A DNA stretch of 64,000 bases from Eledone cirrhosa (taxonomy: Eukaryota). Position 1 is the stretch's first letter; the number at the start of each line of letters is the position of its first letter. Positions 17,824 through 18,112 of the stretch are shown piece by piece. The DNA lies in NCBI GenBank assembly GCA_964016885.1, contig OZ024765.1, forward strand, positions 14,260,001 through 14,324,000, read 5' to 3'. A model generated the notes under the pieces. That model searched no databases. It saw only the letters and a list, made by a program, of their open reading frames with translations, and was not told the DNA's origin. The position numbers and the translations under genes are program-made.

Positions 17824-18112
17824 CAAAAGATGGTTAAAAGAGTTCCATGTATTTTATTATGCGCATTTCAAAAACAAATATCATCATGGGATGATATTTG
17901 CGTTCTCATCAGATAAAATAGGGAGACATGATATGAAGCTTAAAAAACACTTGTGAGCAGTGAAGTGTTAAATCACTGCTCGCAAGTGTTTTTTAAGCTT
18001 CATATCATGTCACCCTATTTTATCTGATGAGAACGCAAATATCATCCCATGATGATATTTGTTTTTGAAATGCGCATAATAAAATACATGGAACTCTTTT
18101 AACCATCTTTTG
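17824..18112. repeat. Second fold-back palindrome of the 6851 family (about 140-bp arms, two mismatches)
   Basis: Arms are reverse complementary around the loop at 17964-17972. Homologous to, but diverged from, 6851-7171. Confidence 0.93.
18016..18086 (+). ncRNA. Type-I minimal hammerhead ribozyme; mirror copy on the minus strand at 17850-17920
   Basis: tattttat-CTGATGA-gaacg-caaatatcatc-ccat-gatgatatttg-ttttt-GAAA-tgcgca-TA-ataaaata. Confidence 0.8.

Follow-up and report, generated by a model that had tools for sequence, protein, structure and literature searches.

Minimal hammerhead ribozymes (min-HHRs) have been described in the pLTRs of metazoan Penelope-like elements (Cervera and de la Pena 2014, PMC4209133), where they also occur as dual motifs on opposite strands, 100–700 bp apart, and possess a palindromic helix III. 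In its accessible sections, this paper presents the G10.1-C11.1 pair and an extra base after A9 as highly conserved, though not obligatory, and gives no in vivo evidence for cleavage by these minimal hammerheads. Cleavage of the dimer was treated by Luense et al., as cited in the review PMC6765202. For endonuclease-bearing Penelope-like elements, Arkhipova et al. (2013, PMC3846280) reported head-to-head palindromic junctions together with a tail, and the Discussion of that paper proposes self-priming. An inverted 5′-truncated copy and (TA)n targets, the latter stated for Naiads, were described by Craig et al. (2021, PMC8557442), who in the sections available termed the origin of the Penelope inverted repeats undefined. 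The protein of PAc, a Poseidon element of Anolis, cuts both target strands and extends them (Frangieh et al. 2024, PMC11167929). It favours AT-rich DNA, uses two internal sites to start reverse transcription and is predicted to be a dimer, and PAc also has a hammerhead; the same excerpts report no RNA-seq ends at the PAc cleavage site and leave inverted copies unexplained. In cephalopods, excerpts of two further papers count 31 Penelope-like families with recent activity in a single octopus genome (PMC13282606) and 235 hammerhead loci in the giant squid (PMC6962438), neither of which is tied to the DNA analysed here. Titles and abstract openings yielded no paper matching the hammerhead family described below, or twin priming in Penelope-like elements, while the family itself may already be present in Repbase, Dfam or the supplements of PMC4209133.

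Here, we analysed a window of 64,000 nucleotides from Eledone cirrhosa (GCA_964016885.1, contig OZ024765.1, positions 14,260,001 to 14,324,000), which is repeat-rich and contains numerous (TA)n tracts and tandem arrays. At 17824–18112 lies a 289-base mirror-image repeat (locus B), whose arms of 140 bp each mismatch at just two of 140 sites (17924:18012 and 17954:17982), exactly as a first-pass annotation of this DNA had claimed. The element sense runs on the minus strand in the left arm (17824–17963) and on the plus strand in the right arm (17973–18112). The 9-nt loop between them (17964–17972, minus strand) is element sequence extending the left arm. The outer ends are unequal by about 12 nt: the left arm lacks the final ~12 nt of the family, while the right arm is followed at 18113–18124 (+) by 12 nt that resemble the family 3′ end, with one mismatch to the loose-end consensus, and then by (TA)n. 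We consider it about 80% probable that this palindrome is a two-armed, 5′-truncated Penelope-like pLTR insertion, in which both arms would have been reverse-transcribed from one source in one event; each arm carries a hammerhead motif. Membership of the palindrome family among Penelope-like elements is likely, as judged from the sequence. The flanks of the palindromes consist of (TA)n or AT-rich repeats, and the microsatellite gave no readable target-site duplication. The left flank of locus B (17770–17815) is a separate, lower-depth repeat, into which the locus appears to have inserted. This stretch was also considered as the tail of the element and was rejected, because reads over it, from its other copies, go on into unrelated sequence.

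The right arm contains a minimal type I hammerhead motif at 18016–18086 (+), with an 8-bp stem I, the core at 18024 and predicted cleavage after 18078. Its mirror at 17850–17920 (−) has the core at 17912 and predicted cleavage between 17858 and 17857. The conserved core boxes and the NUH cleavage triplet are present. The enlarged stem II comprises 15 bp with one mismatch, and the short, palindromic stem III, of a kind that would permit a dimer, includes an 8-nt self-complementary stretch (18070–18077), for which an 8-bp dimer duplex of −10.5 kcal/mol is predicted; loop III is 2 nt. Both motifs read outward from the centre, so that the arms meet with their 5′ ends, head-to-head. The family has another palindrome at locus A (6851–7171, inside (TA)n), with cores at 6952(−) and 7070(+); the two cores are 112 bp apart in locus B and 118 bp apart in locus A. 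In its type I topology, complete core, extended helix II and short, palindromic helix III, as well as in its opposite-strand pairing at such distances and its variable sequence families, the motif resembles the min-HHRs as described in the available sections of PMC4209133. Compared with the Schistosoma motifs given there, helices I and II are longer (8 bp versus 4–5, and 15 bp versus 7–8, respectively). Pair 10.1-11.1 also departs from the typical G-C, being G-U in locus B and A-U in locus A, although a C allele at 11.1 is found among the listed family variants, which are unphased, and two registers lie within 0.3 kcal/mol of each other. A further difference concerns coding: as far as the excerpts of PMC11167929 state, the PAc ORF starts within the hammerhead, whereas ATGs inside the locus B motif open merely 11–13 codons.

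A type I hammerhead descriptor matched all four arms of loci A and B, as well as two that belong to a second family in the window. When the window was shuffled 20 times with an order-3 Markov model, 2 matches arose altogether. At the gathering threshold, Rfam gave no match anywhere in the window, and a scan of 17600–18300 with E-values up to 10 returned 30 matches without a hammerhead family among them, mostly microRNA-type hairpin models and all under the gathering score. Pattern scans of metagenome contigs and of viral contigs gave no matches. By eye, more hammerhead-like cores were noticed at 6713(−), 26376(−), 366(−) and 21186(+), and these fail the type I descriptor. Stem I could possibly be extended by 5 bp (17921–17931 with 17845–17849) past a variable 6-nt bulge; the sole variant listed in this possible extension (17849) keeps pairing.

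To compare the motif across the family, 4 of the 13 public runs listed were aligned to the left arm, loop and flank (2790, 3796, 13 and 5 records). Read depth climbs steeply at 17824, which points to a family that is abundant and ends sharply; depth here is not a copy number. Of the 40 variant rows listed, out of 64, 9 flank rows were dropped and 31 were classified, the variants being unphased and non-independent. Ten of the variants listed fall in stems I–III, and nine of these keep pairing. The exception, a stem III variant at 17864 seen only in the RAD run X11 (1181 of 2012 reads with the same mate direction), probably comes from a single RAD locus. All nine transitions in the helices are pairing-compatible (p about 0.004, with pairing kept by 28 of the 52 transitions possible). 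Among the variants listed, N7 alone varies of the 13 core positions, and loop II accepts transversions while stem II shows none. Together these data support RNA-level constraint on the predicted hammerhead motif at the level of the family, which upholds that part of the earlier claim, while covariation was not demonstrated.

The strongest competing explanation bears on this constraint and not on the origin of the palindrome. Pairing-compatible changes might reflect a bias of mutation or RNA editing instead of ribozyme selection, since sense-strand A-to-G and C-to-U changes yield G-U pairs. Indeed, of the nine helix variants that keep pairing, six represent A>G or C>U changes when read against locus B, two-sided changes are absent, and variable positions are no rarer in helices (10/52) than outside (19/99). 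The deficit of transversions in helices is likewise non-significant (Fisher p 0.11). However, the nine compatible transitions still give p of about 0.009 under a strand-biased null that uses the transition rates of unpaired sites, and neither the near-invariant core nor the presence of transversions in loop II but not in stem II fits such a bias. We therefore regard it as an unlikely source of the pattern. The two loci add little to the family data: none of 31 pairs changed on both sides between loci A and B, a count that is powerless as the four arms represent only two haplotypes, and the five pairing-compatible transitions in stem II (5/5) are weak when taken alone (about 0.54^5 = 0.05). It had been proposed that three stem II differences all convert Watson-Crick pairs to G-U. 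Instead, five paired sites and one loop base differ, with G-U found in locus A at three sites and in locus B at two, and two copies thus split give no such direction.

Whether the palindromic copies are themselves constrained is a separate matter. A transcript through the whole locus B palindrome is predicted to form one hairpin of −232.9 kcal/mol, and this arm-to-arm pairing would outcompete the fold predicted for the ribozyme region alone (about −17 kcal/mol), which makes constraint on these copies unlikely. Moreover, since the two motifs lie on opposite strands, a double hammerhead cannot form from one transcript. Selection is thus likely, on these folding predictions, to have acted on the source elements. 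The public runs listed as containing the family include no RNA run and are uninformative on expression.

Comparison of the two loci revealed that the arms are near-identical within a locus and diverged between loci, in agreement with the first-pass annotation. Over shared columns, the arms of locus A are identical (0/140) and those of locus B differ at 2, compared with 14–15 differences per 140 columns between loci. The core, stem I and stem III do not vary between loci, and the loops are indeed unlike: the 7-nt loop of locus A (7008–7014, centre 7011) aligns with the 9-nt loop of locus B in opposite orientation. By hand comparison, 12 of the 14 differences between locus A and the left arm of locus B are listed family alleles, each found in 26–87 contigs of run X1. 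Inverted joints were found in other copies at 17857/17974, 17860/17947, 17877/17946 and 17860/17935 (X6 record 17), opposite-strand joints of the family occur in three of four runs, and one X4 contig passes the centre without fold-back. Against this contig, hand reading shows a 3-nt overlap at the junctions of both loci, at different points, a reading that depends on a single contig from another organism. Loose ends in some family copies extend further, consistent with an optional 3′ tail and unequal outer ends.

These observations bear on whether the whole palindrome could be mobile, either as a fold-back or MITE-like element or as a palindromic non-autonomous master in which the arms are kept identical. 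The centres of loci A and B lie only a few nt apart, their lengths are similar, and the long arms terminate within 2 nt of each other, as a palindromic master copy would also produce; both loci adjoin (TA)n, like TA-targeting DNA transposons. This notwithstanding, the junction sequences are unlike, the outer ends of locus B are unequal, and other copies invert elsewhere or continue without fold-back. The second family, moreover, has differing centres plus a solo arm, and the hammerhead is predicted to be unable to fold within a transcribed perfect palindrome. Mobility of the whole palindrome is on these grounds very unlikely. As a class, MITE or fold-back DNA transposon was rejected given the unequal ends, the variable joints and the non-palindromic continuation.

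The near-identity of the arms might also be explained by homogenisation after insertion. Arm-to-arm gene conversion or cruciform repair could plausibly act on a perfect 140-bp inverted repeat, and the absence of differences in locus A would fit. However, since 12 of the 14 differences that separate the loci represent widespread alleles of the family, i.e., subfamily states and not private mutations, near-identical arms require no conversion. Locus B also retains two arm differences and the palindrome at 26847 three in 39, as simple ageing predicts, which leaves homogenisation with even less probability than a mobile palindrome. Fold-back sequencing or assembly chimeras are scarcely credible: the symmetric centre of locus B is absent among the joints listed from four runs, but its arms differ at two sites and at their outer ends, the five non-microsatellite tight palindromes of the window are restricted to three repeat families, and the family's opposite-strand joints recur across runs. 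The unlike junctions, the variable joints and the layout of the second family instead favour a mirror arm built at each insertion. Of the two origins suggested earlier for the fold-back, regeneration per insertion is thus favoured and arm-to-arm conversion disfavoured by the family alleles and variable joints; from the sequence, the fold-back was likely made at insertion and not through later conversion.

The two-armed pLTR insertion accommodates these features. The arms run outward from the centre and group by locus, with locus-specific junctions and outer ends, as found in head-to-head, 5′-truncated terminal repeats. Like the inverted pLTRs in the accessible parts of PMC3846280 and PMC8557442, locus B combines a head-to-head 5′-truncated copy, a palindrome at the junction, unequal ends or a tail, and AT-rich and (TA)n targets. 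In contrast to those, both arms are mere ~150-nt stubs without an ORF. Naiads, the (TA)n-target clade, are described in the excerpts of PMC8557442 as lacking canonical hammerheads, unlike locus B. Among 21 ORFs of the window scanned with Pfam, RVT_1 or zf-RVT was found in three and GIY-YIG in none, and there was no Penelope-type gene; for truncated stubs, a missing RT/GIY-YIG ORF in the window is expected. Locus B also resembles non-LTR retrozymes, which the parts seen of PMC7229834 and bioRxiv 10.64898/2026.07.22.740005 present as short repeats that are non-coding, bear a type I hammerhead and probably derive from Penelope elements. Retrozymes, however, are head-to-tail tandem monomers, whereas locus B is an inverted pair. 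Membership in this class was rejected, given that the window holds no head-to-tail tandem copy and no go-back joint occurs among the joints listed from four runs.

Mechanistically, the endonuclease of the element would nick AT-rich DNA, after which two cDNAs, or one cDNA and a self-primed copy, would meet at their truncated ends and be joined via about 3 nt of overlap. Differences between loci were likely inherited from distinct source subfamilies, in which selection likely acted on the hammerhead as a dimer-type ribozyme. Because read-through RNA would form a 140-bp hairpin, the palindromic copies themselves are predicted to be passengers without activity. By analogy, cleavage and extension of both target strands as in PAc would yield two cDNAs meeting head-to-head, and the features of PAc in the available text of PMC11167929 may represent ingredients able to build the structure of locus B. 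We rate priming from both target strands as slightly better than an even chance and self-priming (snap-back) as somewhat below it. The slight lean stems from the outer ends, as the last 12 nt are missing from the loop-owning arm of locus B and have a one-mismatch match in the other. Snap-back cannot supply these outer 12 nt, short of a later trimming of the left end or a chance match in AT-rich DNA.

Three of the four inverted joints elsewhere have one end at 17857–17860, no more than 3 nt from the predicted cut (17858/17857). This coincidence (p about 0.001 under a uniform model) was noticed post hoc, comprises five reads and two single contigs, and is at most a lead. A more daring, and doubtful, reading of the sequences would take the junctions as a fossil record of independently primed cDNAs joined head-to-head, with one arm often copied from hammerhead-cut RNA. 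If true, a genome-wide junction map would show in vivo minimal-hammerhead cleavage and settle the origin of the inverted repeats. The locus itself is ordinary: it is likely a young, dead head-to-head stub, and such Penelope-like hammerhead pairs have, as far as the excerpts of PMC4209133 and PMC3846280 go, already been published. What makes it useful is that the family is young and abundant and its two-armed insertions are short, so that junction statistics alone can address both repeat origin and cleavage.

The second hammerhead family of the window is represented at 19030–19238 by a head-to-head palindrome (19102–19238) with one mismatch in 65, whose left arm has an outer end about 70 nt longer. 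A second palindrome with a different centre lies at 26847–26939 (39-bp arms, three mismatches), and a 5′-truncated solo copy (17621–17749, minus strand) is located immediately left of locus B. The two palindromes share their loop II letters by locus. At 12727–13899, 49244–50707 and 43252–44100 lie reverse transcriptase remnants (RVT_1, zf-RVT) that are presumably LINE-type by motif, and no link to the palindromes was found. A third-family palindrome at 14144–14251 has 51-bp arms with one mismatch and a 6-nt loop, adjoins (TA)n and has a longer left arm, and no hammerhead core was recognised in it; a second copy of this family lies at 12381–12427. Finally, at 18493–18682 a common short repeat forms an inverted pair about a (TA)n core, with four mismatches in 87.
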